Shown one piece after another: positions 7,209 through 49,776 of a DNA stretch of 55,424 nucleotides. The DNA is from Clostridia bacterium (GTDB lineage: Bacteria > Bacillota > Clostridia > TANB77 > UBA1234), in NCBI GenBank assembly GCA_016291695.1, contig JAEEYG010000092.1:1-55424 (forward strand), read 5' to 3'. Numbering within the stretch: position 1 is the stretch's first letter; each line of letters starts with the position of its first letter. The translations under genes were made by a program, and so were the position numbers. Below the pieces are notes generated by a model. It was not told the DNA's origin. It worked only from the letters and a program-made list of their open reading frames with translations, and did not search any database.

Positions 7209-7211
7209 TAC

Positions 7212-7243
7212 GAAAAAGACACCCTTTTGGGGTGCCTTTTTTG
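7212..7243. terminator. Bidirectional terminator between convergent genes
   Basis: The sequence aaaaagaCACCCttttgGGGTGcctttttt forms a short GC stem flanked by an A-run and a T-run. Confidence 0.6.
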
Positions 7244-7250
7244 TTCTTAA

Positions 7251-7934
7251 TTAGAGTTCATCGTCTGGTCCAAGCTGGAGATACTCTTCCAAAGTTAAGC
7301 CGTTGTCCATGATTTCATGAGCAACTTCCGGTGAGCCAACGTAGCGAAGATGCCAGGGTTCGTAACTATATCCAGTTATATCTTCTTTGCCCTGAGGATA
7401 TCTCAAGATAAAGCCATAATCGGCAATCTTAGCATGAATTCTTGCAAAGATTTCGGCTTCGGCAATCATCAGGTCATTGTCGTCAATGGTTACTCCATCT
7501 TTGACAATACAGATGTCAATCGCCAGGCCGGTCTGATGTTCACTAAAACCGGTGACTGCGACATATTGCCGGACATAGTCGATTCCGTACTCTTCCGTAA
7601 ACCGATCCCAGATGTCCTGTTGTTCTGCCACAGAGCGGTAGCAAGAGTCGAGCTCAATCTGGATTCCTTCTGAAAGCAGATCTTCACGAAGAAGTACGAA
7701 CATATCGTAGGCTTCGTATTCGACTCGATGGTCGTGTCCGCCTTCAAAGTCAGGAACGGTCACGAGAATCAGAATTTCTTCCCAATTCTCAGGAAGTTGG
7801 TTTTCCTTGTTAACAAGCACAAGGTAATCAATCATCCTCTTGATATCAGGAGAGGGGACACCGGCAGCGAAAGCAGTCACAGAAACGCTGGAAATGAGCA
7901 TGAGTGCGATGATGAGTGTAATGAACCGCTTCAT
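7251..7934 (-). CDS. VanY-like D-alanyl-D-alanine carboxypeptidase (peptidase M15B), secreted; high-GC cassette A
   Basis: It has a signal peptide (LIIALMLISSVSVTAFA) and M15 zinc-ligand motifs SEHQTGLAIDI and EPWHLRYVG. The RBS is aaggagg. G+C is clearly above that of the flanks. Confidence 0.8.
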   Translation of the reverse strand: MKRFITLIIALMLISSVSVTAFAAGVPSPDIKRMIDYLVLVNKENQLPENWEEILILVTVPDFEGGHDHRVEYEAYDMFVLLREDLLSEGIQIELDSCYRSVAEQQDIWDRFTEEYGIDYVRQYVAVTGFSEHQTGLAIDICIVKDGVTIDDNDLMIAEAEIFARIHAKIADYGFILRYPQGKEDITGYSYEPWHLRYVGSPEVAHEIMDNGLTLEEYLQLGPDDEL

Positions 7935-7963
7935 TTTTGTTTCCTCCTTACTTTTGACATGTC

Positions 7964-8023
7964 TTAGTAATTTGAGAGAAAATTGTGAGCAGGGCCATCC
8001 CGGACAGAGAACGCAAGACGCAT
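7964..8023 (-). CDS. 19-codon leader micro-ORF (MRLAFSVRDGPAHNFLSNY) upstream of the VanY-like gene
   Basis: The ATG at 8023-8021 is preceded by aaggagg at about 7 nt spacing, and the stop TAA is at 7966-7964. It lies between the cassette promoter and the VanY RBS. There is no homology evidence. Confidence 0.3.
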   Translation of the reverse strand: MRLAFSVRDGPAHNFLSNY

Positions 8024-8073
8024 CTTTACCTCCTTAATAAGTAGTAGGCAGTTTCGAGTTAGGTAACTCAGTC

Positions 8074-8102
8074 ATTTTAGCACAGCTTAACATAATTTGC
8101 AA
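8074..8102 (-). promoter_or_regulatory. Sigma-70-type promoter of cassette A
   Basis: The minus strand reads TTGCAA-17 nt-TAAAAT. Confidence 0.5.
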
Positions 8103-8130
8103 TATATAGTACAATTTTGTTAACATAAAA

Positions 8131-8165
8131 CAAAAACTCCCCGGTCGATTACTAGGGGAGTTTTA
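8131..8165 (-). terminator. pyrG terminator
   Basis: The minus strand reads aaaactcccc-tagtaatcgacc-ggggagttttt immediately after the pyrG stop. Confidence 0.8.
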
Positions 8166-8168
8166 TCA

Positions 8169-9770
8169 TTATTTATGCTTTATGCTTTCTCTTATAAATG
8201 AATTAAACAGAGGATGTGGTCTTGTTGGTCTTGACTTAAACTCTGGATGGAACTGACAGGCAATAAAATGTGGATGGTTTTTAAGCTCTATAATCTCTAC
8301 CAAGTCTGCTTTTTCATTTATACCAGAGAAGACCATACCTTTTGAAGCAAGTAGTTCTTTATATTTATTATTAAATTCATATCTATGTCTATGACGTTCT
8401 TTTATTTCTAAGATTTTGTAATCTTCAAAGGCAAGAGTTCCTTCTTTAATCTTACAATCGTAATTTCCTAGCCTTAATGTTCCACCTTTGTTAATTATTC
8501 CTTTTTGTTCAGCCATTAAGTCTATTATTGGATCTTTACAAACTTCATTAAACTCAGTAGAAGAAGCATTTGGAAGCCCACAAACATTTCTTGCAAATTC
8601 TATTACTGCAAGTTGCATTCCAAGGCAAATACCTAAAAATGGAATATTATGAGTTCTAGCATAATTGATTGCTTTTATTTTGCCTTCAATTCCTCTAGAA
8701 CCAAACCCACCAGGAACAAGTATTCCCGAAGTGGTCTTAAATACTTCATCTAGGCTATCCATTTTCTCTAAGTCTTCAGAATTTATCCAATTTACTTTTA
8801 CACGAACGTTATTTGCATATCCTGCATGTTTTAGGCTTTCATTAACAGATAAATATGCATCATGAAGCTCAACATATTTACCAACTAGAGCAATTTCAAC
8901 TTCTTCTTTAAGATTATCTACTTTATTAACTAAGTCTTGCCAATACTTTATTTTGCTTTCAGTTATAGGAAGTTTGAATTGCTTTAATACTAGTTCATCC
9001 ATACCTTGCTTTAAATAGTTCAGAGGAACCCAGAATATGTTTTTAACATCAATGCTATCTATTACATTTTCGGTAGGCACGCTACAAAATAGCGAAATCT
9101 TTTCTTTTAGGTGTTGATTTAGTTCCTCTGGACTTCTACATACAATTAAATCTGGCTGAATTCCCATACCTCTTAGTTCAATTACTGAATGTTGGGTTGG
9201 CTTTGTTTTTAGTTCATTTGAACCATATATATATGGAACTAAGGTTGCATGAACAAATAGGGTGTTTTCTTTTCCTAATTCGTTTCGCATCTGTCTTAAT
9301 GATTCAATAAATGCCTGAGACTCGATATCTCCAATAGTTCCACCAATTTCGGTAATAACAATATCAGCTCCACTAGTAGAGGCGGCGGCATAGATTTTTG
9401 ACTTAATTTCATCTGTAATGTGGGGAACTATTTGAACTGTAGCTCCTAAATAATCTCCTTTTCGTTCTTTTTCAATTACACTTTGGTAAATCTTGCCTGT
9501 TGTTATATTAGAAGTATAATTAAGTTCTTCATCAATAAATCTTTCGTAGTGGCCTAAATCTAAATCGGTTTCTGTTCCGTCAGCTGTAACATAAACTTCT
9601 CCATGTTGAAAAGGTGACATAGTACCGGGATCAACATTTATATAAGGATCAAACTTCTGCATGAAAACCTTATATCCACGAGCTTTTAAAAGTAGCGCTA
9701 AGCTAGATGCTGTTATTCCTTTTCCTAATCCTGAAACGACTCCGCCTGTAACGAAAACAAATTTTGACAT
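8169..9770 (-). CDS. pyrG: CTP synthase
   Basis: 533 aa. The N-terminus is [18 protein letters not shown], and the glutaminase domain has GICLGMQ and the HRHRYE motif. Confidence 0.97.
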
Positions 9771-9782
9771 ACTATTTCCTCC

Positions 9783-9822
9783 TAAAAAATGCCACTAAGA
9801 GAATCCCCTTAGTGGCTCTTTT
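9783..9822 (-). promoter_or_regulatory. pyrG 5'-leader terminator-like hairpin (candidate attenuator)
   Basis: On the minus strand there is a 9-bp perfect stem, gccactaag / cttagtggc (9791-9799 / 9808-9816), followed by aTTTTTT and running straight into the RBS aggagg. Confidence 0.55.
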
Positions 9823-9824
9823 AA

Positions 9825-9853
9825 ATTTTATCACTATAAAAAATGTAGGACAA
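9825..9853 (-). promoter_or_regulatory. pyrG promoter
   Basis: The minus strand reads TTGTCC-17 nt-TAAAAT with an upstream TG (extended -10). Confidence 0.5.
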
Positions 9854-10017
9854 CATTGTAAAATTCTTTTAATGATTCAGTCACTATTTTTTAACAAGGT
9901 GAACATAATTATCAAAACAGTGATTTTTAAATATTTTTTATTGTTATTTTATCATTAAAAATATATTACAAAAGCTTATTATGAAGCTATTTAGTATAAA
10001 ATAAAGGGGAAAATATT

Positions 10018-12321
10018 ATGTTTAATTTTGAGGTAAAAATGAATAAACTATCGAAAAATGTATGTTATATGAATAAATTTATATTATTAACATTATTTAT
10101 AGTCTTTTGCATGGGAATTTCCCTTAACACTTCGTATGCAGCTATTGATGAATCATCTGCATTAATTATGGAGTGGGACATTCCTGCAAATACAGAAATT
10201 AAGATTCCAATTAAAGGTACTGGAAATAATTACACAATAAATTGGGGAGACGGTAGTAGTGAAACTTCTGGGACTAGTTTATTTCCAACCCATACTTATA
10301 CTACCGCAGGAACATATACTATTAAAGTTGGTGGGAAAGTTAATAACTTTGGTTTTTATGATAACGTTGATGAAGTTTCACCTACTAGTGATTTGTACAC
10401 TTACACTCAATATCTAAAAAAGGTAACTCAAGTTGGAAATTTGGGTTACAATAGAATTGGCTTTGCTTCTTGTTATAATCTTACAACCGTTGATTTTAAA
10501 GGCGGTTTTAATTCATCTAATATGACAAGTATAGGTCTGATGTTTTGTAATTGCTTTTCTTTAACAAATGTTTATAATTTTGACGTGTTAGATACCTCTT
10601 CTGCTATCAGTATGGCCGGAATGTTTATTCACTGTGAAAACTTGGAAAGTATTGATGTCTCGCATTTTAATACTTCTAGTGTTACTGATATGCAATCTAT
10701 GTTTGGAGCTTGCTATAAATTAACATCCATAGATGTTTCTAATTTTGATACAAGAAATGTAACTACAATGTATAATATGTTTCATAATTGCAAGGCATTA
10801 GAGACGCTTGATGTTAGAAACTTTGACACATCCAAGGTTACAAGTATGTCTTACATGTTTAGATACTGCCAAGCACTTCCACACTTAGATCTTTCAAATT
10901 TTAATACTAGCAGTGTTACAACCATGGAAAGAATGTTTGAAGGTGATAGAGCTCTTACTTCATTAGATTTGTCTAGCTTTAATACAGCTAATGTTACTAA
11001 TATGTCACTTATGTTCAAGTCCTGTAGTGGTTTGACTTCTTTAAATGTTTCTAGCTTTAATACAACAAAAGTAACAACTATGAAGGATATCTTTTATGGT
11101 TGTGAATTATTAACAGATTTGGATGTTTCAAATTTTAGTGCTTCTAGTTTAACAAAGGCAGAAGATATGTTTCGTGAATGTTCTAAACTTAAAAGGATTG
11201 TATTTGGCGATGGTTTCAATACAAGTAAAGTAACATCAATGGAATACATGTTTTATAAGTGTTCAGAATTGGAAGAAATAGATTTTGGAAACTCATTTAA
11301 CACTTCAAAAGTAACTACAATGACGAGCATGTTTAGCAATTGTACTGCACTTAAAAAACTAGATTTAAGCAGATTTAGTACTATAAAAGCTACTACTATG
11401 AGTGCTATGTTTAATAAATGTGAAGCTTTAAGGTATCTTGACCTTAGCACATTTGATACTTCTTTAGTAACTGACATGCAAAATATGTTTAAGAATTGCA
11501 CAAATTTAGAGTTTATAATTATTGGTAATAGTTTTGATAAATTGAATGGAAGTACTATGTTTACAGGTTGCTCTTCTTTAAGATCTATTATCACTACATT
11601 AGTTATCGATGATCCTAATAATGCAATGGATGTAAGTACTTCTATTGGACTAAATTCAACTGCTGCTTTATATGTTCCTAATGTTGATACTGCGGAAGTA
11701 TATAGACAAGCAAATCTATATAGTAATGTTTTTGGTGCTTCACGAATTAGACCTATTCTTGAAGTAAATGGTACGCCGAAGGATATTACTATAGCTCAAG
11801 ATTCTGTTTATGGAACTGCTCAAGATAAGGGCGCTTCAATTGCAGGTTTCTCTTATAGAACAGAACGCGGAAATCCTATATATACTGAATTAGGCTATAG
11901 TATTACAGAAACTGGACTTCCTGTTGATACAACTACAACTGGTAATAAAACGGTTACTTATACTGGAAAGAAGGGTACTAATACTTTAATGACTGCTACC
12001 AGACAGGTAACAGTACAATTTGTTGATTCTGTCGCTCCATTCGGAAGTCTTACTATTCTTAATAAAATAACTGGTAATAGCAATAATGAATTTGTTAAAC
12101 GTAGATCTGTTACTTTGAAACTATTTGGACAAGATAATGTTGCAGTTACAAATTACGCATTGGCAAATGAGAACGCAAGAAGTTCTGTTTCGTGGCAATC
12201 ATTTACTGGACCAACTCTAGAACTTCCTTGGAGACTATCTGAAGGGGATGGAAGTAAGACAGTTTATTTAATGTTTAAGGATGGTGCAAATAATACTTCT
12301 GTGACTTTTGTAACACCATAA
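10018..12321 (+). CDS. BspA-type leucine-rich-repeat surface protein
   Basis: It has a signal/TM segment, then about 15 or more copies of a roughly 25-aa repeat of the form FNTSKVTSMxxMFxxCxxLxxLDLSN, and a C-terminal Ig-like region. The start could be ATG 10018 or ATG 10039. Confidence 0.85.
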   Translation: MFNFEVKMNKLSKNVCYMNKFILLTLFIVFCMGISLNTSYAAIDESSALIMEWDIPANTEIKIPIKGTGNNYTINWGDGSSETSGTSLFPTHTYTTAGTYTIKVGGKVNNFGFYDNVDEVSPTSDLYTYTQYLKKVTQVGNLGYNRIGFASCYNLTTVDFKGGFNSSNMTSIGLMFCNCFSLTNVYNFDVLDTSSAISMAGMFIHCENLESIDVSHFNTSSVTDMQSMFGACYKLTSIDVSNFDTRNVTTMYNMFHNCKALETLDVRNFDTSKVTSMSYMFRYCQALPHLDLSNFNTSSVTTMERMFEGDRALTSLDLSSFNTANVTNMSLMFKSCSGLTSLNVSSFNTTKVTTMKDIFYGCELLTDLDVSNFSASSLTKAEDMFRECSKLKRIVFGDGFNTSKVTSMEYMFYKCSELEEIDFGNSFNTSKVTTMTSMFSNCTALKKLDLSRFSTIKATTMSAMFNKCEALRYLDLSTFDTSLVTDMQNMFKNCTNLEFIIIGNSFDKLNGSTMFTGCSSLRSIITTLVIDDPNNAMDVSTSIGLNSTAALYVPNVDTAEVYRQANLYSNVFGASRIRPILEVNGTPKDITIAQDSVYGTAQDKGASIAGFSYRTERGNPIYTELGYSITETGLPVDTTTTGNKTVTYTGKKGTNTLMTATRQVTVQFVDSVAPFGSLTILNKITGNSNNEFVKRRSVTLKLFGQDNVAVTNYALANENARSSVSWQSFTGPTLELPWRLSEGDGSKTVYLMFKDGANNTSVTFVTP
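10470..11580 (+). repeat. In-frame tandem LRR-coding repeats (about 75-nt period)
   Basis: The motif (V/A)T(S/T/D)M..MF..C..L..(L/I)D(L/V)S.F recurs at a regular period in the translation. Confidence 0.8.
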
Positions 12322-12336
12322 ATTTGATATGAATAT

Positions 12337-12376
12337 AAAAGCACTTATTATTTTCAAATAATAGGTGCTTTTGTTT
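12337..12376 (+). terminator. Rho-independent terminator
   Basis: The stem is aaagcacttatt ... aataggtgcttt, followed by T-rich sequence. Confidence 0.7.
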
Positions 12377-12443
12377 ATTGACTATAAATTTTATGGTATA
12401 ATTATTTTGCAGTATTATTAAACTATTTAAGGCGGATTATTTA

Positions 12444-14807: not shown

Positions 14808-14814
14808 GGTGTTT

Positions 14815-18958: not shown

Positions 18959-18987
18959 TTGACAGTTTACATAAGGTGATATATAAT
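18959..18987 (+). promoter_or_regulatory. Consensus promoter of cassette B
   Basis: TTGACA (18959-18964), a 17-nt spacer, then TATAAT (18982-18987). Confidence 0.6.
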
Positions 18988-19043
18988 TCGTTTGTTGTTA
19001 GTAAGCATATTCGACTATTGATATTTCATGAGGAGGAAAACGT

Positions 19044-19547
19044 ATGTACATGCCTGACCTGATGGGTATTCCTGCTTTTTTTCAGTCTTTCACCACTGAG
19101 AACGGAGAAACTGTGTCTGATATCTATGAGGCCATCAAACGGATGAATCGCAAAGAAAAGGTCACTGTTCACCTTAGACTATTCAATGGCTACCTTTCAC
19201 ACTTCGTTATATCCAAAATTGATATTGTCTCCAGCAAATTAGTGCTATTCTACAGAGACAATAAGGCATATTCTGTGAACAATATCCGCGTGGATATGAG
19301 ACCGCTTAAATCAAAGACTATGCGGTTTGAGCTCTCTCAAGACAAGGTTATCTCATTTGACCTTGCGAGGAAAAGTAACTTCAAAGAGATTACCGACTGG
19401 CTTTCGCAGGGCAAAGAGATGAAGGTCATCTACGCTGATGATGAGAACCCGGAGTTAAAGTGCACAATTATGGGTGTAAATCAGTTTGATCCTGAAAAGC
19501 TCATTTTTTCTAACACATACGGACTCAAATGCATTATTGTTGACTGA
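19044..19547 (+). CDS. Hypothetical protein, high-GC cassette B
   Basis: 167 aa with the RBS gaggagg. G+C and codon choice (ctg, atc, gac, ttc) are unlike the neighbours. I recognise no motif. Confidence 0.6.
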   Translation: MYMPDLMGIPAFFQSFTTENGETVSDIYEAIKRMNRKEKVTVHLRLFNGYLSHFVISKIDIVSSKLVLFYRDNKAYSVNNIRVDMRPLKSKTMRFELSQDKVISFDLARKSNFKEITDWLSQGKEMKVIYADDENPELKCTIMGVNQFDPEKLIFSNTYGLKCIIVD

Positions 19548-19557
19548 AACAATATAT

Positions 19558-19594
19558 AAAGGCTCATAGGGTATTCTATGGGCCTTTATTTTTA
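19558..19594 (+). terminator. Terminator of cassette B
   Basis: The sequence is aaaggctcatag-ggtatt-ctatgggcctttattttt. Confidence 0.7.
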
Positions 19595-21519: not shown

Positions 21520-22017
21520 TTATTCTTCTTCTTTAAGTTCAGATGTACAATGAGGACATCTTGTTGCTTTTATTGGAATTACAGATAAGCAGTAAGGGCA
21601 TTTCTTTTCTGTTGGTGCTTCTTTTTCTGGCTCACCTTTTTTCTTTCCAAGGTTCATAAGCTTGTTAACAGCTTTTACCATAAGGAAAATGCATAGAGCC
21701 ATGATCAAGAAATTAACAATTGAAGTAATGAAGTCTCCCCAATTAATAGATAAAGCAGAAGCGGCTTCTGAATCAAGTCCTGTGTAGTCAACCCATGGGA
21801 GCTTTAATTGTCCTGCAATTTCAGCACCTCCAATAGACTTAATTAATGGGTTAATGAAATCATTTGTAAGAGCAGTAACAATGTTACCAAATGCAGCACC
21901 AATAATAACGCCGACTGCCATATCCATAACATTACCTTTTAGAGCAAATTCTTTGAATTCTTCCATGAATTTTTTTGACTTATTTTTTGCTTTAGAAATG
22001 TCAATTTTTTTATCCAT
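21520..22017 (-). CDS. mscL: Large-conductance mechanosensitive channel with a C-terminal zinc-ribbon tail
   Basis: The start is placed at ATG 22017 (MDKKIDIS...) behind the RBS aaggag. The MscL core is FKEFALKGNVMDMAVGVIIGAAFGNIV. There is an extra C-terminal CPYC...CPHC. Confidence 0.85.
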   Translation of the reverse strand: MDKKIDISKAKNKSKKFMEEFKEFALKGNVMDMAVGVIIGAAFGNIVTALTNDFINPLIKSIGGAEIAGQLKLPWVDYTGLDSEAASALSINWGDFITSIVNFLIMALCIFLMVKAVNKLMNLGKKKGEPEKEAPTEKKCPYCLSVIPIKATRCPHCTSELKEEE

Positions 22018-22221
22018 AATAATTCTCCTTTTCTTTAAATTATGCTTAAAATAGCATATTTGATTCATTTTTATATTATAAAATATACCTAGTATTGTCA
22101 ATAAACCGCTAAAAATTTAGTTCTCAAAATACATAAAAAAGTAATATTATTTGTAAAATTCATTTTATTATAGCGCTAAATGTGGTATAATTCCTTTTAA
22201 TAGTGTTTGTAGGTGGTGAAT

Positions 22222-31559: not shown

Positions 31560-31588
31560 TTGACAGAATATGGCTTTTGAGGTAAAAT
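31560..31588 (+). promoter_or_regulatory. Consensus promoter of cassette C
   Basis: TTGACA (31560-31565), 17 nt, then TAAAAT (31583-31588). It begins 4 nt after the clp stop codon, with no intervening terminator. Confidence 0.55.
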
Positions 31589-31637
31589 ATGTAAGGTTAA
31601 GAATCTTTCAAAACGACAAACAAAGGAGGATTCCTGG

Positions 31638-32150
31638 ATGAAGAGCAAGATTGACATCCTGAGAAACGTCATTGTGATTCCACATCACGGCTGTGAAGTT
31701 TGTTGCATCCAGCGAGGTCGGATAATTCCACCTGGAGGAATCATTGCAAAGTCTAAGGACATCATCATTTTCCATGAATACACCACATATATCAAAGGGT
31801 ATATTGTGGTGGCACCCACGGACCACAAGACCTCGTTAACAACCGAAGAGAGGGAAATGTACCAGGATTACATCGAGGCTATCATAGCTTTCATGATGGA
31901 AAAAAATGTGGCAGAATCTTTTACCGTCAAAGAGTGCATTGAAGATGGACATATCCGCTTTCACATCCTTCCTGATTTTGAGGGTGTGGACTGGGACCAG
32001 TATGAGGTATCTCTGCTTTCCGAAATGGGACCTGCAAGCCTTGAGAGAAGGGGAATTCAAACCTCATCTCCCTATGAGATCCTTCTTCTCGTTCAGCACC
32101 TCAAGAACGAGATGAAAAAAAAGAACCGGGAACTTATGGTTACTGTTTGA
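31638..32150 (+). CDS. HIT-like (histidine triad-related) protein, high-GC cassette C
   Basis: 170 aa with the RBS aaaggagg. It has an N-terminal CxxC and a degenerate triad, GHIRFHILP, at the position expected for HxHxHxx. G+C is elevated. Confidence 0.45.
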   Translation: MKSKIDILRNVIVIPHHGCEVCCIQRGRIIPPGGIIAKSKDIIIFHEYTTYIKGYIVVAPTDHKTSLTTEEREMYQDYIEAIIAFMMEKNVAESFTVKECIEDGHIRFHILPDFEGVDWDQYEVSLLSEMGPASLERRGIQTSSPYEILLLVQHLKNEMKKKNRELMVTV

Positions 32151-32155
32151 ATTTT

Positions 32156-32197
32156 GGCAGGACTGCTTTATAATAGAAGCGGCCCTGCTATTTTTTT
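32156..32197 (+). terminator. Terminator of cassette C
   Basis: An imperfect GC-rich stem, ggcaggactgc...gcggccctgc, is followed by a T7 run. Confidence 0.65.
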
Positions 32198-33441: not shown

Positions 33442-33470
33442 TTGACATAATTCTATGTGAAAGATATAAT
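33442..33470 (+). promoter_or_regulatory. Consensus promoter of cassette D
   Basis: TTGACA (33442-33447), 17 nt, then TATAAT (33465-33470). Confidence 0.6.
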
Positions 33471-33526
33471 ATCAGCATGGTTTTCATGGTTTTTTCTCAA
33501 AAAAATAATTTTTGGAGGGATGATGT

Positions 33527-33997
33527 ATGGAAGACAGAGATCGCAAGGAAGCTCGAATCCAGCAGGTAATTGCAGAAATCAAGGCACTTCGGAAAATCTT
33601 AGTTAAGACACTACGAGCATACTACATGGGATATCGGGATGCCCAATTGGATCTTGCTGAAACCTGCAGAAACAAGTACACCAAAAGGGTTCGAATTCAG
33701 ATCATTTCAAATGATTACCTTCGTAAAATCCATCACTTAACTGAAGTGTTCGGGGAGTTCAAGATTTTAAGCCCAGGGTGCGTTGCATTTGGTTCTGCAG
33801 AACGGGGAAACTATAAAATCTGCCAGCTTGGGGACTATGACTACTTCAGGAACGCGCTGTGGATTCACGTTGCATTGGTGAAAGAAATTATCACTGACCT
33901 TCGTTTCCGTACAAATTGTGATTTTTCTGATTTTGACAGATATGAAAAACTGCTCAACGAGTATAAGAGACTCTCAAACGAGCTCTATTACAGTTGA
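33527..33997 (+). CDS. Hypothetical protein, high-GC cassette D
   Basis: 156 aa with the RBS ggaggg and elevated G+C. I recognise no motif. Confidence 0.55.
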   Translation: MEDRDRKEARIQQVIAEIKALRKILVKTLRAYYMGYRDAQLDLAETCRNKYTKRVRIQIISNDYLRKIHHLTEVFGEFKILSPGCVAFGSAERGNYKICQLGDYDYFRNALWIHVALVKEIITDLRFRTNCDFSDFDRYEKLLNEYKRLSNELYYS

Positions 33998-34008
33998 CGC
34001 GAAATCTA

Positions 34009-34037
34009 TAAGAGTGCATTTGCACTCTTATTTTTTA
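34009..34037 (+). terminator. Terminator of cassette D
   Basis: The sequence is agagtgc-attt-gcactct followed by tatttttt. Confidence 0.75.
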
Positions 34038-34084: not shown

Positions 34085-34718
34085 TTGGAAATAGATAGAT
34101 TAGTACCAGCAATAGAAGCGCTACTTTTCGTTAGCCGGAAGGCCTGTGACTAAAAAGACACTAGCCGAAATACTTGAAAATACTGAAGAAGAGATTGAAG
34201 AAGCGGCTCAAAAGCTAGAAAACAGGCTAACAGATGATAACTCTGGTATTCAGCTAATTAGAATAAATGATGGGTATGAGCTTTCTACAAAAGAAGCATA
34301 CTACGATATGGCAGTTAAATTATTAGATAATAGGCCTAAACCATCATTATCTCAAGCAGCAATGGAAACGCTAGCTATTATTGCTTATAACCAAAGGATT
34401 ACTAGAGCGGAGATTGAGCGAATTAGAGGTGTTTCTTCAGACAGTGCTATAAATAGGCTGTTAGAATACAATCTAATAGAAGAAGCGGGAAGAATAGACG
34501 CACCTGGAAGACCCATGACTTTTAAGACTTCAGACGAATTTTTAAGGCTATTTGGATATGAATCTATAAATGATATGCCGGAATTGCCTCAATTAAAAGA
34601 AGATGATGGTCAGATAGAGCTAAAATTAGATGAAACCACTACTGAAAGCGAAGAACCTAACATAGAAGAACCACAAAAAACAAATGAAGAATTTACTCCA
34701 GAAAATGTAGAAAATTAG
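34085..34718 (+). pseudogene. scpB: Segregation and condensation protein B with an apparent 1-nt insertion at about 34136
   Basis: TTG 34085 opens LEIDRLVPAIEALLFVS, the canonical ScpB N-terminus, and then hits a stop. Dropping c34136 joins it to GRPVTKKTLAEIL..., the frame of the track ORF at 34146..34718. The rest is typical ScpB (LSQAAMETLAIIAYNQRITRAEIERIRGV). Confidence 0.8.
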
Positions 34719-36398: not shown

Positions 36399-36427
36399 TT
36401 GACATTTGCTAGTTTACATATTATAAT
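36399..36427 (+). promoter_or_regulatory. Consensus promoter of cassette E
   Basis: TTGACA (36399-36404), 17 nt, then TATAAT (36422-36427). Confidence 0.6.
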
Positions 36428-36460
36428 TTCTTATGCAAACTAAATTATAGGAGGGATTCC

Positions 36461-36712
36461 ATGGTAGTTCTTGCTGTGGTTCTTGGGCTTCTTCTTCTGG
36501 CATGCATCTACATCCGATTCTTCTACAACCCGTTTCACAAAATGGTGATTGACAACATCCGGCCGTCCAGAAGGCAAGTACGACAAGTAGCATCCTCAGA
36601 TGAACCTATCTGCTATCACACCATCATGGACTGCGAATCCTGTGGAGCCAGCTACAAATGTAAAAGGATATTTGGAGCAGGCTATATTAGGACAAAAAAT
36701 GACAATCCTTAA
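36461..36712 (+). CDS. Small membrane protein with a Cys-rich tail, high-GC cassette E
   Basis: 83 aa with the RBS aggaggg, an N-terminal TM (VVLAVVLGLLLLACIYI) and then CYH...CESCG...C. The first 60 nt are 47% G+C by hand count, against 17% for the first 60 nt of the next native gene. Confidence 0.55.
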   Translation: MVVLAVVLGLLLLACIYIRFFYNPFHKMVIDNIRPSRRQVRQVASSDEPICYHTIMDCESCGASYKCKRIFGAGYIRTKNDNP

Positions 36713-36736
36713 ACATATCAAATAATTTGATGATAT

Positions 36737-36775
36737 CAAAACAGCCACTGCACCTATGCGGTGGCTGTTTTAATT
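36737..36775 (+). terminator. Terminator of cassette E
   Basis: The sequence is cagccactgc-acctat-gcggtggctgtttt. Confidence 0.8.
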
Positions 36776-42466: not shown

Positions 42467-42473
42467 ATATATA

Positions 42474-42527
42474 AAAAAGTCCTCAATAATCATGCTTTTT
42501 TAAAGCAATTATCTGAGGACTTTAACT
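42474..42527 (+). terminator. Long hairpin after ackA (probable terminator)
   Basis: The outer stem is agtcctca (42478-42485) / tgaggact (42514-42521), with an internally structured loop. The T-tract is weak. Confidence 0.5.
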
Positions 42528-42706
42528 TTATGATCAAAAGAATCCGAAACGTAGATTTTTCCTTTTTCGATTTTCATATCTAATTTACATAATTTTTATA
42601 CAGTATTTTTTTATCAATTCAATACAAACATGTTACATTTACATAATTTTATAGAATTTTTAGCCAAATATGGTATAATTTACATGAATATTTCTAGTTA
42701 AGGACG

Positions 42707-43570: not shown

Positions 43571-43597
43571 AAATACATAAGAAAAGAGGATATACTT

Positions 43598-44812
43598 ATG
43601 AAAAAGGTATTATTATTAGTCTGTGTTATATCAATAATTGTTTTAATTGCATCATATTTCATAATTACTAATGGCTCAAGAATTAAGCCAGAAGTTGGAT
43701 ACCCTACATATACTACTAATCCGACAGAGGAACCATTACCAACTGAGGATACAAGAATTGTAATTCCAGTTGTTACTGCAAATCCAAATCCAACAATAGC
43801 TGTAGTTACTCCTATTCCTCCGGTAGATAAACCTGAAGATATTAATACATCTGGAGAATCTGGTGACAATACTAGTGGCGAAGTTATTACAAATAAAGAA
43901 TTTGCTCAGGATAGTATTATTTTTATATTGGATAATAGGATACTTTGTGGTTTAAATAGTGGAAAATGGACTTTTGACACAAATTATAAGCCATCAGATA
44001 TTTTAAGTAGTTCATCTTATTACACTTATAACAATAAAGGCGTAAAAGGAATTACTACAAAACTATATGCAACATGTAGTCTAAAGTATAAAAACTTTAC
44101 TGGTGTATTTTCAGAAAACTTTATAAACTTATCTTCAAAGTATGATAATAGTACTCATATTGCTACTTTTAATTTACCAGTTTCAGTACCACAGGATTTA
44201 GACTATAGCTACAACTATAGAGATGGAGAATTAAAATTCGAAGACAAAGGATTCTTTGTAACAAATGCATCATATGCTATTAATTTTGCATCCGTTTATG
44301 CTAATTCATATGATCCTTTGAATCTAACAAATATAGTAGAGAATAACTACATTAGAAAAGTAATTAATCTATCAAATAATGTAAAAGCATACATTGGAGC
44401 CTTTATAGCGGAAAATGAAATATCTAGTGATTTAAGTTATGCTGTTCCATTTGCTTGTACAGCAGATATAGATAGAGATAATAAGGATGAAACATTATAC
44501 TTTATTACTTCATATATGGGAAATGGTGATGAGGTCGATACTGACTTCGTTGCAGAATATGGTCATTACACTATGCTTTTGGTAGAAGACAACAATGAAG
44601 TAAATCTAATCTATTGCGACTATATACCAGCACAAGCAGAAAAAGAAACAATTGAGTTAGAGAAGAAGTATGATAATGCTTTATATAGACCTATAATAGT
44701 TGACTTGAATGATGATGGTATTTATGAACTAATCTTCAAGCTAAGAAGCAGTTCAGGAAATGAAACCATAATTTATATTTATGATAATGGAGAATACATT
44801 AGAGTTAAATAA
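43598..44812 (+). CDS. Membrane-anchored extracytoplasmic protein with a Pro/Thr linker and FG-GAP/VCBS-like Asp-rich loops
   Basis: It has an N-terminal TM, a PT-rich linker, and the segments ADIDRDNKDE and VDLNDDGIYE. Function is unknown. Confidence 0.5.
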   Translation: MKKVLLLVCVISIIVLIASYFIITNGSRIKPEVGYPTYTTNPTEEPLPTEDTRIVIPVVTANPNPTIAVVTPIPPVDKPEDINTSGESGDNTSGEVITNKEFAQDSIIFILDNRILCGLNSGKWTFDTNYKPSDILSSSSYYTYNNKGVKGITTKLYATCSLKYKNFTGVFSENFINLSSKYDNSTHIATFNLPVSVPQDLDYSYNYRDGELKFEDKGFFVTNASYAINFASVYANSYDPLNLTNIVENNYIRKVINLSNNVKAYIGAFIAENEISSDLSYAVPFACTADIDRDNKDETLYFITSYMGNGDEVDTDFVAEYGHYTMLLVEDNNEVNLIYCDYIPAQAEKETIELEKKYDNALYRPIIVDLNDDGIYELIFKLRSSSGNETIIYIYDNGEYIRVK

Positions 44813-44825
44813 CCTAGGAGATTAT

Positions 44826-45509
44826 ATGTTAGAAGTAATTTATGAAGATAATCATGTGCTCGTTGTAAAAAAGCCTTGTAATGTCCCTACTCAAAGTGAC
44901 AAATCAGGCGATTTAGACTTACTTACAATGTGTAAGAATTATTTAAAAGAAAAATATAATAAACCTGGCAATGTATATGTTGGTCTTCTTCATAGATTAG
45001 ATAGACCTGTTGGAGGTATAGTTGTTTTTGCAAAAACTTCAAAGGCCGCTTCTAGACTATCCGAGTCTATTAGAGAAAATAACTTTCACAAAACATATAT
45101 TGCTATAGTTTATGATCAAGATAATAAACTACCAAATGAAGGTTCATTTGAAGACTATCTTGTTAAAAATGAAGCTTTAAACAAGAGCATGGTATGTTCA
45201 AAAACTAAAAAAGGCTCAAAACTTGCTAGATTAGATTATAAGGTATTACAAAAAGAAAAGATTGATAATAAAGACTTAAAGTTAGTAGAAATAGCATTGG
45301 AAACCGGAAGGCATCATCAAATTAGAGTTCAATTTTCATCACGTGGTTTTCCACTATATGGAGACCAAAGATACGGAATCGGCCCTACAAATAAGCAAAT
45401 AGCTCTATGGGCATATAAAATTAGCTTTAAACATCCTGTAAAAGATGAAGTATTAGATTTTACCTGCATACCTGATAATATAGGTATATGGAAAAGTTTT
45501 AAGCAGTAG
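44826..45509 (+). CDS. RluA-family pseudouridine synthase
   Basis: The start is ATG 44826 behind the RBS aggag. Motifs are VIYEDNHVLVVKKP, HRLDRPVGG and TGRHHQIRVQ. Confidence 0.88.
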   Translation: MLEVIYEDNHVLVVKKPCNVPTQSDKSGDLDLLTMCKNYLKEKYNKPGNVYVGLLHRLDRPVGGIVVFAKTSKAASRLSESIRENNFHKTYIAIVYDQDNKLPNEGSFEDYLVKNEALNKSMVCSKTKKGSKLARLDYKVLQKEKIDNKDLKLVEIALETGRHHQIRVQFSSRGFPLYGDQRYGIGPTNKQIALWAYKISFKHPVKDEVLDFTCIPDNIGIWKSFKQ

Positions 45510-45666
45510 ATCATTCTACTTAAATAAATAAAAATAAGGTAATTCATCTTTGGCTGTATTATTTTTGTTCGTTTATAGTATAAAATTGTAAAAAAGTAAT
45601 AACTAATCTGTTTTAACAATAGAAAGCTCATATAATTATGGAATAAATTAGGAAAGGAGAATACTT

Positions 45667-46083
45667 ATGGAAATAAAAGCCATCAGTTCAACTACAGAAT
45701 ATCCTGAAAAAAATAATAATAAAAAATACGAAGCAATCAAGAAGTTTGCTAATTTATTAACGATTAACCTAATTGTATCTTTAAAATCAATTTGCTTTGC
45801 TATTCCTCTAATTCCACCACCAGACATTCCATTTGAACAAATAGAGACTGAAACAAATTTCTTACCACTAATAAGATGGATATTTGCTGCTCTTTCAGTC
45901 GCTGCTTTAATATATGTAGGGTTATCAGTTGCTGAGTATAAATATAAACTTAAACACAAAGAAGGATTTGTTCCACTTTCTGAGGAAGCTATGAAAAAAC
46001 AACGTATACGAAGAATACTATTAGTGGCAATTCCTGCACTTATATCATTAGCTTCAACATTGATTTCAATATTTATACAATAA
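45667..46083 (+). CDS. Small multi-pass membrane protein, unknown function
   Basis: 138 aa with the RBS aaaggag and three hydrophobic segments. Confidence 0.5.
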   Translation: MEIKAISSTTEYPEKNNNKKYEAIKKFANLLTINLIVSLKSICFAIPLIPPPDIPFEQIETETNFLPLIRWIFAALSVAALIYVGLSVAEYKYKLKHKEGFVPLSEEAMKKQRIRRILLVAIPALISLASTLISIFIQ

Positions 46084-46223
46084 AAAAGAATATATTTAAA
46101 AGACGATAGAGAAAAATGTCACTTATGAATATAAAGAAATATAATACTTTATATAGTCTAATTAATAATGTTTATGAAAGACTAACAATGTAATTTGTGT
46201 AACAAAAATTTAATATTAAAGTT

Positions 46224-46258
46224 GAGCCCTAATGTTTGATTATTAGGGCTTTTTTTAT
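46224..46258 (+). terminator. Orphan intrinsic terminator about 140 nt downstream of the preceding CDS
   Basis: A perfect 9-bp stem, agccctaat (46225-46233) / attagggct (46242-46250), is followed by a T7 run. Confidence 0.7.
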
Positions 46259-46326
46259 ATAATGTTAGTAAGTATATTTATGTCAAAAGAAATAATAATA
46301 TAGAAGTACTAAGGAGGAAATATAAG

Positions 46327-47478
46327 ATGGCTTTAAAATTTGTATTGAACGAGACAGCTTATTTTGGAAAGAACGCAAGAGAAGTATTACCAGAAGAAAT
46401 TGTTAAAAGAGGCTTCAGTAAAGTTCTACTTGTTTCTGACAAATCATTAGTTGAAGCTGGCGTTACAAAAAAGGTTACAGACGTTTTAGATAGGGCGAGT
46501 ATTGATTATTCTATCTATGACGATATTAAACCAAATCCTACAATAGCAAATGTTCTAGGTGGTGTTGAAAAATGCAGAGCTGAGAAGGCTGATGTTATAG
46601 TTGCAGTCGGAGGGGGCTCATCAATTGATACCGCTAAAGGTATTTCAATTATAATGACAAATCCAGATAGAACATTAGAAAGCTTAAATGGATTATCTAA
46701 TACAATTAATAAAGGATTACCACTTATTGCTCTTCCTACCACACACGGAACAGCTGCAGAGGTTACAATTAATTACGTTATAACCGATGAAGAAAGAAAG
46801 ATAAAAATGGTTTGTGTAGATCCAAATGATATACCTTGTCTATCAATTGTTGATTCAGAATTAATGTATTCTATGACAAGAGGCTTAGCTGCCGCTACAG
46901 GAATGGACGCATTAACACATGCAGTTGAAGGATACATCACAAAGGCACACAATACTATGTCAGATATGTTCCACATGGAAGCAATTAAACTTATATTTAA
47001 ATATTTACCAGCTGCAGTTAATGATAAAAATGAAGAAGCCATCGAAAATATGGCGCTTGCACAATACATTGCAGGAATGGGATTTTCAAATGTTGGTCTA
47101 GGCTTAGTTCATTCTATGGCACACCAATTAGGAGCAGTTTATGACACTCCTCACGGACTTGCGAATGCAATACTTCTTCCAACTGTTATGAGATATAATG
47201 GAGAAGTATGTGCTCAAAGATTTAGAGAGATTCTATGCGAAATTGGACGTCCAGATGCTGCATACTTAAATGACCAAGATGTTATTAATACATTCTGTTG
47301 GATGATTTCTGAATTATCTAAATCAGTTGGAATAACAGAAACAGTTAGAGATACAGGATGTAAAGAAGAAGATTTAGAAATGCTTGCAGAAAAAGCTATG
47401 GAAGATCCATGTAAACCAGGAAATCCTAGAGAAGTTACAAAAGAAGATATCATTAATCTATATAGATATGCTATGTAG
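46327..47478 (+). CDS. Iron-containing (group III) alcohol dehydrogenase, lactaldehyde-reductase-like
   Basis: It has GGGSSIDTAKG and His-rich metal motifs (DALTHAVE, HSMAHQLG..YDTPHG); 383 aa. Confidence 0.88.
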   Translation: MALKFVLNETAYFGKNAREVLPEEIVKRGFSKVLLVSDKSLVEAGVTKKVTDVLDRASIDYSIYDDIKPNPTIANVLGGVEKCRAEKADVIVAVGGGSSIDTAKGISIIMTNPDRTLESLNGLSNTINKGLPLIALPTTHGTAAEVTINYVITDEERKIKMVCVDPNDIPCLSIVDSELMYSMTRGLAAATGMDALTHAVEGYITKAHNTMSDMFHMEAIKLIFKYLPAAVNDKNEEAIENMALAQYIAGMGFSNVGLGLVHSMAHQLGAVYDTPHGLANAILLPTVMRYNGEVCAQRFREILCEIGRPDAAYLNDQDVINTFCWMISELSKSVGITETVRDTGCKEEDLEMLAEKAMEDPCKPGNPREVTKEDIINLYRYAM

Positions 47479-47488
47479 TATCCTACTA

Positions 47489-47517
47489 TTGACAACTTAA
47501 TATTAATGATATATACT
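47489..47517 (+). promoter_or_regulatory. Consensus promoter of cassette F
   Basis: TTGACA (47489-47494), 17 nt, then TATACT (47512-47517). It starts 11 nt after the adh stop. Confidence 0.55.
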
Positions 47518-47550
47518 GGACGAACCGACAAATTTTTAAGGAGGGTCACC

Positions 47551-47895
47551 ATGGGAAAGTTCGCAATCAGTAATTTTTCCTACCTCGAGGATGTATTGGG
47601 ATTCAAACCATCCTCAAATCCCCGGAGATTTCAAGAATGTCTGCGGGTGATGGAAAGCTACACAAGGAGAGGCGACCAATGGTGGATCGAATTCCGAGGT
47701 AATCCAGTAGAACTTGCTGTAAGACAGCTTGCAGAGCCGGTGCTTCTGATTCCCATTTCAACATTCGAAAAGGGACTTAGAACTGTCCTGGAAAGACCAG
47801 TTGACCCCTGTGAGATTTCACATAAAAACAATGCTCTTTTCGTCGAGTTTTCAGAAAAATACAAGGCGTATAGGGCTGCAAATAGGCAAAAATAA
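47551..47895 (+). CDS. Hypothetical protein, high-GC cassette F
   Basis: The start is ATG 47551 behind aaggaggg; the track's 47506 start lies inside the promoter. It is 114 aa, Arg-rich, with elevated G+C, and I recognise no motif. Confidence 0.55.
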   Translation: MGKFAISNFSYLEDVLGFKPSSNPRRFQECLRVMESYTRRGDQWWIEFRGNPVELAVRQLAEPVLLIPISTFEKGLRTVLERPVDPCEISHKNNALFVEFSEKYKAYRAANRQK

Positions 47896-47904
47896 CTACA
47901 AAAT

Positions 47905-47940
47905 GAGGGATTTCTGTATGTATACAGGGATCCCTTTTTC
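47905..47940 (+). terminator. Terminator of cassette F
   Basis: The sequence is gggat-ttctgtat-g-tatacag-ggatccc followed by ttttt. Confidence 0.7.
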
Positions 47941-47941
47941 C

Positions 47942-47970
47942 TTGACTTTTAGGCAAATATTATGTAAAAT
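47942..47970 (+). promoter_or_regulatory. der promoter
   Basis: TTGACT (47942-47947), 17 nt, then TAAAAT (47965-47970). Confidence 0.55.
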
Positions 47971-47997
47971 TATAAGAAGTGAAAAGAGGTGATACAC

Positions 47998-49341
47998 ATG
48001 TCTAAACCAATTGTTGCAGTAGTTGGAAGACCTAATGTTGGTAAATCTACGTTTTTTAATTATATAATAGGCGAGCGTAAGTCAATCGTAAAGGATACTC
48101 CAGGTGTTACAAGAGACCGTATTTATGGTGATGCTACATGGAGAGGTAGAGAATTCACATTAATTGACACCGGCGGTATTGAGCCAAAGTCTAATGATGA
48201 CATACTTGTTCAAATGAGATATCAAGCTGAAATAGCTATAGAAACAGCTGATGTTATAGTGTTTTTAACAGATATTATGCAAGGAGTTACTTCTGATGAC
48301 ATGGATGTAGCCTCAATTTTGCGTAAGGCAAATAAGCCAGTTATACTAGTTTGTAATAAGTCAGATAAGGTTGGAGAAACTCCTTCTGAGCTTTATGAAT
48401 TCTATAATCTAGGCTTAGGAGATCCATTACCAGTATCATCACTTAATAAACTAGGCATGGGAGAAGTACTAGACGCAATTTATGATAAATTCCCAGAGAT
48501 TGATAATTCAGATGAAGATAGCGAATATATAAATGTTGCAGTTATCGGAAAACCAAATGTTGGTAAGTCATCATTAATTAATAGAATATTAGGTGAAAAG
48601 AGACTAATTGTATCTAATATTGCTGGAACAACAAGAGATGCTATTGATACAAAATTTGAGAATAAAGATGGAAAGTATGTTTTTATTGATACTGCTGGAA
48701 TTAGAAGGCACAGCAAAATTGAAGAAGATATCGAAAAATATAGCATAATTAGAGCTAAAGCTTCTATCGAAAAAGCAGATGTGTGTATTTTAGTTATAGA
48801 TGCTTGTGAAGGTGTTACAGATCAAGACGCCAAAATTGCTGGTGAAGCTCATGAAAGCGGAAAAGGCATTATTATATTAATCAACAAATGGGATGCAATA
48901 GAAAAAGAAACTGGTTCATTGGAAAACTACAAAAAGGAAGTTATTAATAAGCTCTCTTATCTAGATTATGCTCCAATGATATTTGTTTCTGCACTAACAG
49001 GCCAAAGAATCGATAAACTATTTCCATTAATTAATAAAGTATATGAAGCAAATAATAGAAGAGCATCAACATCTTTGATTAACGAAGTAATAAATGAGGC
49101 TATTACAATGGTACAACCGCCATCAGATAAGGGAAGAAGGCTAAAAATATACTACGCTACTCAAGTATCAACTAGACCACCTACATTTGTAGTGTTCTGC
49201 AACAGCCTAAAATTATTCCACTTTTCTTATCAAAGGTATATTGAAAATCAGCTAAGGAAGAGTTTTGACTTTGAAGGAACTCCTGTTCGCGTTATTCCTA
49301 GAGAAAAAGCAGCCAAAGACTTAGAAAAAGCCAAAAAATAG
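47998..49341 (+). CDS. der: Ribosome-biogenesis GTPase Der (EngA)
   Basis: It has tandem GTPase domains (GRPNVGKST and GKPNVGKSS, each with DTGG/DTAG and NK.D) plus a KH-like C-terminus. The start is ATG 47998. Confidence 0.95.
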   Translation: MSKPIVAVVGRPNVGKSTFFNYIIGERKSIVKDTPGVTRDRIYGDATWRGREFTLIDTGGIEPKSNDDILVQMRYQAEIAIETADVIVFLTDIMQGVTSDDMDVASILRKANKPVILVCNKSDKVGETPSELYEFYNLGLGDPLPVSSLNKLGMGEVLDAIYDKFPEIDNSDEDSEYINVAVIGKPNVGKSSLINRILGEKRLIVSNIAGTTRDAIDTKFENKDGKYVFIDTAGIRRHSKIEEDIEKYSIIRAKASIEKADVCILVIDACEGVTDQDAKIAGEAHESGKGIIILINKWDAIEKETGSLENYKKEVINKLSYLDYAPMIFVSALTGQRIDKLFPLINKVYEANNRRASTSLINEVINEAITMVQPPSDKGRRLKIYYATQVSTRPPTFVVFCNSLKLFHFSYQRYIENQLRKSFDFEGTPVRVIPREKAAKDLEKAKK

Positions 49342-49350
49342 AGGTTTAAA

Positions 49351-49506
49351 ATGAAAATAAAGGAATTTAAGCTTATTTATTTAATTGTTAGGGAAAATAA
49401 TAAGGTTATATATGAAGGAATGGCAGAAAGTGCCCCAGAAGACGTTATTTCTAGAGATATTTCAAAGATTAGACTAGAGAATGGCAAAGCAATTATTGAT
49501 TGTTGA
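49351..49506 (+). CDS. 51-aa ORF immediately downstream of der (not in the ORF track)
   Basis: ATG 49351 is 9 nt after the der stop, with an agagg RBS. The sequence is MKIKEFKLIYLIVRENNKVIYEGMAESAPEDVISRDISKIRLENGKAIIDC, in native composition. I cannot test conservation. Confidence 0.35.
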   Translation: MKIKEFKLIYLIVRENNKVIYEGMAESAPEDVISRDISKIRLENGKAIIDC

Positions 49507-49531
49507 CATAATTGCTCTTTTCTGGTAAAAT
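49503..49531 (+). promoter_or_regulatory. Consensus promoter of cassette G
   Basis: TTGACA (49503-49508, overlapping the TGA at 49504-49506), 17 nt, then TAAAAT (49526-49531). Confidence 0.55.
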
Positions 49532-49596
49532 AGACTGGCGAAAACCCCACAAATCACTCTATAAAAAATTTTATCAGAGAAAAAGGAGGAGCAGCA

Positions 49597-49725
49597 ATGC
49601 GTATCAGACCTTGTCCAGCCAAAAAGCGTCGAAACAAGACAAACAAAAAAACAAAGTTCATCATCAAGAAAAGACCCAAACCCGAAGATGAATATGAAAC
49701 CTCCCTTGAATACTACGAAGAATAA
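49597..49725 (+). CDS. 42-aa basic/acidic micro-protein, high-GC cassette G (not in the ORF track)
   Basis: The RBS is aaaggagg and the start is ATG 49597. The sequence is MRIRPCPAKKRRNKTNKKTKFIIKKRPKPEDEYETSLEYYEE, with the stop at 49723-49725. It is followed by its own GC-rich terminator. Confidence 0.4.
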   Translation: MRIRPCPAKKRRNKTNKKTKFIIKKRPKPEDEYETSLEYYEE

Positions 49726-49730
49726 TTATC

Positions 49731-49762
49731 AAGCCCTGCGGATTTTACCGCGGGGCTTTTCA
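49731..49762. terminator. Terminator of cassette G, possibly also serving the convergent recombinase gene
   Basis: The sequence is agccctgcgg-atttta-ccgcggggctttt. Confidence 0.75.
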
Positions 49763-49776
49763 GTTGTAAAAAATAA

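Follow-up and report, generated by a model that had tools for sequence, protein, structure and literature searches.

Seven single-gene cassettes between core genes

We analysed a 55,424-nt stretch of DNA (hereafter, the window; contig JAEEYG010000092.1 of the Clostridia bacterium assembly GCA_016291695.1) in which seven short genes, cassettes A–G, lie one at a time between core chromosomal genes (Table 1). The window has a G+C content of 32%, and the initial annotation had described these seven open reading frames (ORFs) as compositionally odd, rich in Arg and in codons ending in C or G. Quantification bore out both points. G+C content at third codon positions (GC3) was 0.14–0.28 in all of the approximately 45 remaining ORFs, and leave-one-out scoring of every ORF with a codon table built from the core gave synonymous codon z values of −6.2 to −8.2 for A–G, with no core gene near this range. 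Peaks of the sliding G+C profile coincided with the positions at which the genes had first been noticed, and six of the top seven maximal-scoring GC-rich segments are cassettes (A, C, F, D, E and B); G has a raw G+C content of just 0.38 and ranked 16th among such segments, yet it was clear by codon usage. The GC3 and per-ORF codon checks that the initial annotation had proposed separated the seven ORFs from their neighbours. The GC-rich segments extend approximately from the ribosome-binding site (RBS) to the terminator, and the promoters are AT-rich like the host. At first and second codon positions, the G+C contents of A–G overlap those of the host, and the anomaly is thus essentially confined to synonymous usage: ATA, TTA, CTA and AGA are avoided (GTA, also an A-ending codon preferred in the core, is likewise scarce), and CTC, CTG, ATC, ACC, CCC and CGG are favoured, with CGG making up 13 of the 65 Arg codons in the cassettes versus 2 of 547 in the core. 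The cassette proteins contain 6.8% Arg (core, 3.5%), and C is more frequent than G at third positions of the coding strand (C3 > G3).

Two further candidates from the compositional analysis were rejected. An alternative code or reassignment of CGG is contradicted by the alignment of CGG with conserved Arg residues (for example, PRRF in F and its homologue F′) and by core ORFs that code 11 translates without interruption. The GC-rich segment that ranks third in the window (53029-53175; 58% G+C) is not an eighth cassette but the part of a TPM-domain ORF (52443-53201) that specifies its C-terminal tail, rich in Ser, Gly and Ala.

The seven units are predicted to be single-gene and independently transcribed, each with a sigma-A-type promoter, a strong Shine–Dalgarno sequence and an intrinsic terminator. 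B–G each carry a TTGACA-17 nt-TA(T/A)A(A/C)T promoter and account for six of the eight such matches in 55 kb; the remaining two belong to the gene at 21520-22101 (−) and to rpmF, a native gene whose near-consensus promoter had already been pointed out. The uniform TTGACA-17-TATAAT layout previously ascribed to all seven thus holds for the promoters of B–G and, as regards RBS and terminator, for every unit (AGGAGG, GGAGG or GAGG; hairpins followed by a T-run, −17 to −27 kcal/mol, with −17.4 kcal/mol for A), but not for the promoter of A, which reads TTGCAA-17-TAAAAT and is followed by a GC-rich leader of approximately 150 nt. B is flanked by the terminator of spoVG and the promoter of uvrC. We also reproduced the tight spacing reported for three promoters: the −35 box begins 4 nt past the clp stop codon in C and 11 nt past the adh stop codon in F, and overlaps the TGA of ORF 49351-49506 in G. 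Comparison of the flanks of the seven units revealed no shared k-mer of at least 9 nt, and no direct repeats, target duplications or border motifs.

Table 1. Cassettes A–G of the window, their homologues (A′–G′) in the species of contig JAEEHF010000065.1, and upstream ORFs (uORFs) of VanY-type genes. aa, amino acids.
Feature	Position	Strand	Promoter	ORF (length)	Terminator	GC3	Codon z	Protein identity	Remarks
Cassette A	7213..8102	−	8074-8102	7251-7934 (227 aa)	7213-7242	0.48	−7.7		
Cassette B	18959..19593	+	18959-18987	19044-19547 (167 aa)	19558-19593	0.50	−6.4		
Cassette C	31560..32197	+	31560-31588	31638-32150 (170 aa)	32156-32197	0.51	−7.2		
Cassette D	33442..34036	+	33442-33470	33527-33997 (156 aa)	34008-34036	0.45	−7.3		
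Cassette E	36399..36771	+	36399-36427	36461-36712 (83 aa)	36738-36771	0.48	−8.2		
Cassette F	47489..47939	+	47489-47517	47551-47895 (114 aa)	47905-47939	0.42	−6.8		
Cassette G	49503..49760	+	49503-49531	49597-49725 (42 aa)	49731-49760	0.42	−6.2		
A′	L176					0.35		69%	Context different from window
B′	L168:10486-10995					0.36		31%	Syntenic, promoter conserved
C′	L172					0.45		38%	Syntenic
D′	L172					0.35		48%	Syntenic
E′	L172					0.34			Syntenic
F′	L172:16009-16347					0.35		55%	Syntenic
G′	L172:18095-18226			(43 aa)		0.55		Weak similarity	Syntenic; basic peptide
uORF in leader of A	7964-8023	−		(19 codons)					MRLAFSVRDGPAHNFLSNY; own AAGGAGG RBS; read from sequence
uORF upstream of VanY-type gene	L178:7900-7938								MLHYNTRAGPYH
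uORF upstream of VanY-type gene	L179:4797-4832								MHYYLVHAGPT

Homologues and empty sites in related lineages

Relatives were located by position through conserved neighbours (the SpoVG and AckA clusters), and a metagenome scan with Clp added two useful loci (L088 and L089), giving a sample of approximately 190 kb of clade loci from roughly six lineages. The nearest reference genomes are metagenome-assembled genomes (MAGs) of uncultured ruminant-gut Clostridia, in which Clp is 76–79% identical. A 128-kb contig from another species (JAEEHF010000065.1; loci L168, L172 and L176) is collinear with the window over approximately 40 kb, with core proteins approximately 70–97% identical to those of the window and a core GC3 of approximately 0.19. 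This species has homologues of all seven cassettes, and B′–G′ lie in the intergenic positions in which the window has B–G; homologues of A (in L176 and L178) sit in contexts unlike that of the window. Conservation extends to the regulatory DNA: the promoter of B reads TTGACAnTTTACATAAnGTG in both the window and L168; the promoter, 5′ untranslated region (UTR) and terminator of D align at the nucleotide level with L172; and the promoter of G and a UTR motif, AAACCCCACAA, are common to the window and L172. Relatives therefore carry these genes largely at the same sites, with a composition that is likewise unlike that of the host.

More distant loci display a patchy distribution. L001 has weak homologues of C and D (G+C contents of 0.41 and 0.34, respectively, versus 0.29) and a homologue of E, all at the same sites; in L002, the C and D sites are short and empty; L088 has homologues of C (GC3 of 0.45) and E in place and no D; and the L169/L173 lineage has D and E, with B and C sites that are cleanly empty. 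At the empty B site of L169 and L170, the spoVG terminator leads straight into the uvrC promoter. Given such clean empty sites, the cassettes are gained or lost as whole promoter-to-terminator modules. Alignment of these intergenic regions, as the initial annotation had recommended, placed the borders at the promoter and the terminator and revealed no target duplications. The set as a whole evidently predates the split of the compared species. The earlier proposal of seven independent acquisitions is contradicted by the presence of all seven homologues in another species, six of them at the same site and with conserved regulatory DNA for B, D and G, and by the synteny of C, D and E in further relatives.

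Relatives also carry raised-GC3 genes that the window does not have (L168:2374-3636, L176:6605-7966, L178:7199-7726 (−) and L088:15673-16038 (−)), examples being a 420-aa ORF, a 121-aa ORF that comes after ackA and, immediately before A′, a gene for an AAA_28 protein. The compositional class thus exceeds the seven members in the window.

Persistence of the codon signature

Between the window and the JAEEHF010000065.1 species, the proportion of synonymous differences (pS) was 0.72–0.83 in the cassettes and 0.45–0.77 in core genes, and synonymous sites are saturated in all genes. The proportion of nonsynonymous differences (pN) in the cassettes was 0.34–0.46, well below pS, indicating that the cassettes are protein-coding and under purifying selection; their proteins evolve several times faster than those of their neighbours while still being constrained. 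Consistent with saturation, the third-position G+C state was uncorrelated between orthologues at conserved residues (odds ratio of 1.17, p = 0.5, n = 364). GC3 at these conserved residues was nevertheless 0.45 (window) and 0.33 (relative) in the cassettes versus 0.18 and 0.17 in the core. Codon avoidance was retained in the same way: in the three cassette sets, ATA made up 0.06, 0.06 and 0.13 of Ile codons (core, 0.38), and the corresponding values were 0.09, 0.08 and 0.11 for TTA (core, 0.42) and 0.29, 0.19 and 0.34 for AGA (core, 0.70). In the related species, A at third positions (A3) was halved in the cassettes (0.20 versus 0.40 in the core) and T (T3) was unchanged (0.43 versus 0.41). Approximately 10% of the ORFs in the clade loci belong to this codon class, several members of which have perfect TTGACA-17-TAnnnT promoters in other species. 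The signature is a class trait common to homologues in every species examined. At such turnover, a gene under the host regime should have reached host composition, according to a simple, unfitted two-state relaxation argument; because the signature outlasts saturating synonymous turnover, the composition is better understood as maintained than as a leftover of recent transfer.

Assembly and mobility

Contigs of different sample or assembly origin (JGI 3300041004, JGI 3300041006, GCA_016295045.1 and GCA_016648415.1) encode exact copies of the A and G proteins, and they align at 98–100% identity to the window across the junctions of A (L081-L083), F (L085) and G (L084-L087). Because these junctions recur in independent assemblies and related species share the cassettes, neither misassembly nor engineering accounts for the arrangement, and the suggestion of an engineered or chimeric sequence can be dropped. 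Within-species variants were few, fewer than a substitution spectrum would require.

None of the units contains a mobility gene, and no tRNA gene or RNA family was found in the window by tRNA and Rfam scans. Searches of phage and plasmid records with the concatenated B–F proteins (tblastn) and pattern scans of IMG/VR with alignments of B, C, D and F gave no match. Word-indexed searches for C and D, which are too insensitive for fast-evolving proteins, returned only their own cluster, and in 5.8 billion or 1.84 billion proteins neither C nor D had homologues outside the clade-like set. The initial annotation had reported neither repeats nor an integrase next to the units. The first part stands, as no repeats are shared among the flanks; the second does not, as a gene for an Xer-like tyrosine recombinase (49777-50802 (−)) lies directly downstream of G. 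This protein matches TIGR02224 (5.7e-69, below the equivalog cut-off) and scores best as XerC/XerD (232.7 and 218.9 bits), compared with 102.6 bits for integron integrase (cut-off, 265). The relative has this gene in the corresponding position (L172:18265-19287), and the enzyme is probably a chromosomal Xer-type recombinase, not a cassette integrase. The unrecognised insertion mechanism invoked earlier has no positive evidence in its favour: neither target duplications nor repeats were found, and each unit simply begins with its promoter and ends with its terminator.

Predicted products of the cassettes

Searches of all seven proteins against Pfam, NCBIfam, PHROGs and PADLOC gave real matches for A only. 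Its assignment as VanY-like was upheld by Pfam (PF02557; score of 111.4 bits with a cut-off of 25; E = 3.5e-32; 131 of the 132 profile positions aligned). VanY/M15B peptidases bind zinc through an H-x6-D...H motif, and A has this motif in SEHQTGLAID and EPWHLRY. It misses the NCBIfam equivalog cut-offs for VanXY (133.6 versus 250) and LdcB (102.9 versus 275), and has more than 7,900 relatives. We predict that A is a secreted M15B peptidase of the VanY/LdcB type, a widespread family. Its leader contains a 19-codon uORF, and uORFs ending in RAGP or HAGP precede homologues of A in L178 and L179; the uORFs of VanY-type genes carry an (R/H)(A/D)GP motif and their own strong RBS. RAGP and RAPP-like sequences are ribosome-arrest motifs (SecM; PMC10987492, PMC12992588). 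By analogy, the uORF of A may encode an arrest-peptide leader that controls the cell-wall peptidase.

C had been called HIT-like, and this holds for the fold but not for the catalytic His triad. A profile of four clade homologues of C matches HIT proteins in the PDB (3oj7, 4.5e-8; 3l7x, 3e-7; and several more), whereas C alone has no match in Pfam, and the precomputed HIT match of the L172 homologue is merely 'faint'. Only H105 of the triad is invariant (HIRFHIL in the window; HACLIIL, HFQFWVV and HMQLVCK in relatives). C is thus predicted to be a divergent HIT-fold protein; as the triad retains just its first His, canonical nucleotide hydrolase activity is improbable. As a group, B–G are clade-restricted or have no detectable relatives elsewhere, and for B and F no relatives of known structure or family were detectable. 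The D family has 18 representatives among the 1.84 billion proteins, is clade-restricted and has, in all representatives, an amino-acid make-up typical of AT-rich hosts. An AlphaFold2 (AF2) model of D (predicted local distance difference test (pLDDT) score of 94.4) suggests a helical bundle with a small sheet, and comparison of the model with the PDB gave no significant fold neighbour; single-sequence AF2 prediction of F (pLDDT of 58) was too poor for use. E has a hydrophobic N-terminal segment, probably a transmembrane helix, and a C(Y/I)HTxxDCExC motif that is common to its positional homologues in L001, L002, L088, L172 and L173. The G peptide has a strongly basic N terminus and an acidic tail. 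Among the PADLOC defence models, only marginal matches were found (C against Cmr3, E = 0.0013), with none for the other cassettes.

Three side observations concern these genes. In four loci (L088:11065-11235, L172:5228-5356, L173:8091-8294 and L001:17903-18109), the homologue of E is immediately followed by another small ORF, which has a hydrophobic, Trp-containing N terminus and an extremely acidic tail; in the window, the terminator comes directly after E and there is no such ORF. Among public gene calls, some that correspond to B, C and D (P0004, P0006, P0009 and P0010) extend past the stop codon by reading TGA as Trp, apparently through annotation of these low-GC contigs with code 4; because core ORFs are intact under code 11, these extended calls are annotation artefacts. 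A promoter-like TTGAAT-16-TATAAT sequence (32147-32174) overlaps the stop codon and terminator stem of C just upstream of an AAA-ATPase gene, and there is no other room for a promoter of that gene between the C terminator and its RBS. Downstream of D, scpB (34087-34718) is apparently split by a 1-nt frameshift near 34125-34135, with LEIDRLVPAIEALLFVSRKACD followed by a stop in one frame and AGRPVTKKTLAEILE in the next. Relatives have scpB as one intact ORF; in the window, the split reflects an error of sequencing or else a real frameshift or pseudogene.

Origin and maintenance of the cassettes

On the basis of these results, we consider the cassettes to be an inherited gene class of an uncultured low-GC rumen Clostridia lineage, with a composition that has been maintained and without recent insertion (probability of roughly 0.6). 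We hold less firmly that the composition is actively maintained, as opposed to being residual foreignness. The units may plausibly have arisen long ago by horizontal transfer, in the manner of morons, although this is not demonstrable; to this extent, the suggestion of horizontally acquired orphans domesticated by the host survives, but it leaves unexplained why codon usage is not host-like after saturating divergence. As a cause, we tentatively favour selection on codon or messenger RNA properties, a possible explanation given that the signature is codon-specific, limited to the ORFs and coupled to conserved consensus promoters and RBSs. Such selection would determine the manner or timing of translation of these strongly transcribed genes, with consensus promoters and RBSs offsetting the poorly host-adapted codons or acting in concert with them. 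A more far-reaching version, which we regard as unlikely, is that the cassettes form a regulon-like class in which avoidance of ATA, TTA and AGA and use of CGG are themselves selected as a codon-based expression channel. Consensus sigma-A promoters would then flood the cell with mRNA, and the codon set would tie translation to a different subset of tRNAs, such that the proteins would be made, or not made, when decoding of core codons changes (during starvation, with altered tRNA modification, or through tRNA or mRNA nuclease activity in phage attack). This would be a low-GC Firmicute case running in the reverse direction to bldA/TTA control in Streptomyces.

Several points weigh against an inherited, maintained class. 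Strong transcription alone does not explain the codon usage, because rpmF has an equally perfect promoter and host codons. The comparison is confined to approximately 190 kb of loci, and orthology of the very divergent pairs rests on position and conservation of regulatory DNA, not on phylogeny. At least A is mobile, as it occupies different contexts in different species, once beside a resolvase gene and restriction-modification genes. Moreover, the ORFs may formally have been replaced time and again from a pool of genes outside the sample. Under this alternative, the units would be ancient and moron-like, and their ORFs would have been re-imported or replaced again and again by homologous recombination from an unsampled higher-GC pool (plasmids, phages or mid-GC relatives), with no codon selection. 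The patchy distribution among relatives, the clean promoter-to-terminator borders, the very low protein identity of positional homologues and the varying contexts of A all agree with it, as does a codon usage that resembles that of mid-GC Clostridia. It ranks next but is unlikely: the database searches for C and D gave nothing outside the clade-like set, no phage, plasmid or IMG/VR relatives emerged in the searches made, and the D-family representatives all resemble proteins of AT-rich hosts. Replacement would also have to be confined to the ORF, given that promoter, UTR and terminator are conserved together with it.

Other explanations fare worse. GC-biased gene conversion, which has been proposed for bacteria (PMC4450053), or a local mutational quirk caused by frequent recombination or transcription would let elevated GC3 persist as an equilibrium without codon selection, and the consensus promoters do suggest heavy transcription; such a process is improbable, given that the anomaly ends at approximately the RBS and terminator next to AT-rich promoters and spacers, that rpmF has a GC3 of 0.17 under the same type of promoter, and that the signature of the relative consists mainly of A3 loss with unchanged T3, which is codon-specific and no general push towards G+C. 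The excess of C3 over G3 on the coding strand is, in addition, the opposite of transcription-associated deamination. Seven recent independent insertions by an unrecognised cassette mechanism would account for the uniform architecture, the foreign codon usage, the three promoters that abut upstream stop codons and the Xer-like recombinase adjoining G. We consider this very improbable, as seven homologues, six of them at the same site, are found in a species saturated relative to the window at core synonymous sites, the units have no repeats, target duplications or common border motifs, and the recombinase is itself syntenic in the relative. The layout of consensus promoter, consensus RBS, ORF and clean terminator does look designed, but an artefact (engineering, chimeric assembly or the misreading of GC-rich structured RNAs as ORFs) is hardly credible in view of identical junctions in several samples and assemblies, divergent homologues in other species, pN well below pS, the VanY and HIT matches of A and C, the confidently modelled fold of D and the lack of any Rfam match.

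Atypical composition is routinely read as recent horizontal transfer. This reading and the associated amelioration clock fail here, because the same codon usage occurs on the same genes, mostly at the same sites, in species saturated at synonymous sites. If selection maintains the pattern, strongly transcribed, clade-specific proteins of uncultured rumen bacteria would be under codon-level control, and the cassettes would be a test case in the debate on the source of GC3 heterogeneity within genomes (selection, biased conversion or gene flow); if import is continual, there would be a hidden gene pool that has yet to enter large databases. For MAG curation, the cassettes are a warning that genes of this kind should not be marked as contamination, chimeras or fresh horizontal gene transfer.

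Comparison with known systems

Phage morons are single genes with their own promoter and terminator (Hendrix/Juhala definition; PMC3594210). The cassettes resemble them in this respect, in lying between genes that are adjacent in some relatives and in differing from flanking genes in composition (GC3 of 0.42–0.51 versus 0.14–0.28). Unlike morons, they are found between core chromosomal genes (spoVG/uvrC, clp, scpB, rpmF-pta and adh/der) with no prophage, and they are syntenic across species, apparently by vertical descent, with no match in phage records or IMG/VR. Similar to ORFan genes of gut and rumen bacteria, the cassettes are short, fast-evolving, without detectable family and patchy within a narrow clade. 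However, a large survey found that orphan genes closely match the G+C content and GC3 of their hosts (10.1101/2023.07.17.549306), whereas the cassettes deviate by 6–8 standard deviations from the host, and do so across species. As in integrons, several single-ORF modules occur within a short chromosomal stretch, but there are no attC-like repeats and no integron integrase, and each module has its own promoter and terminator and is dispersed among core genes. The cassettes also differ from the cargo of genomic islands, integrative and conjugative elements or insertion sequences in having no integrase or transposase within the units, no direct repeats and no tRNA gene in the window.

Non-optimal codon usage serves a function in cyanobacterial kaiBC, Neurospora frq and the TTA-containing, bldA-dependent genes of Streptomyces. 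As in these cases, a subset of genes keeps a codon usage unlike that of the rest of the genome over evolutionary time, which would imply control of expression at the level of codons; in contrast to them, the cassette class is defined by composition and not by a known pathway. Genes with adaptive non-optimal codon usage may be the closest functional analogy to the cassettes.

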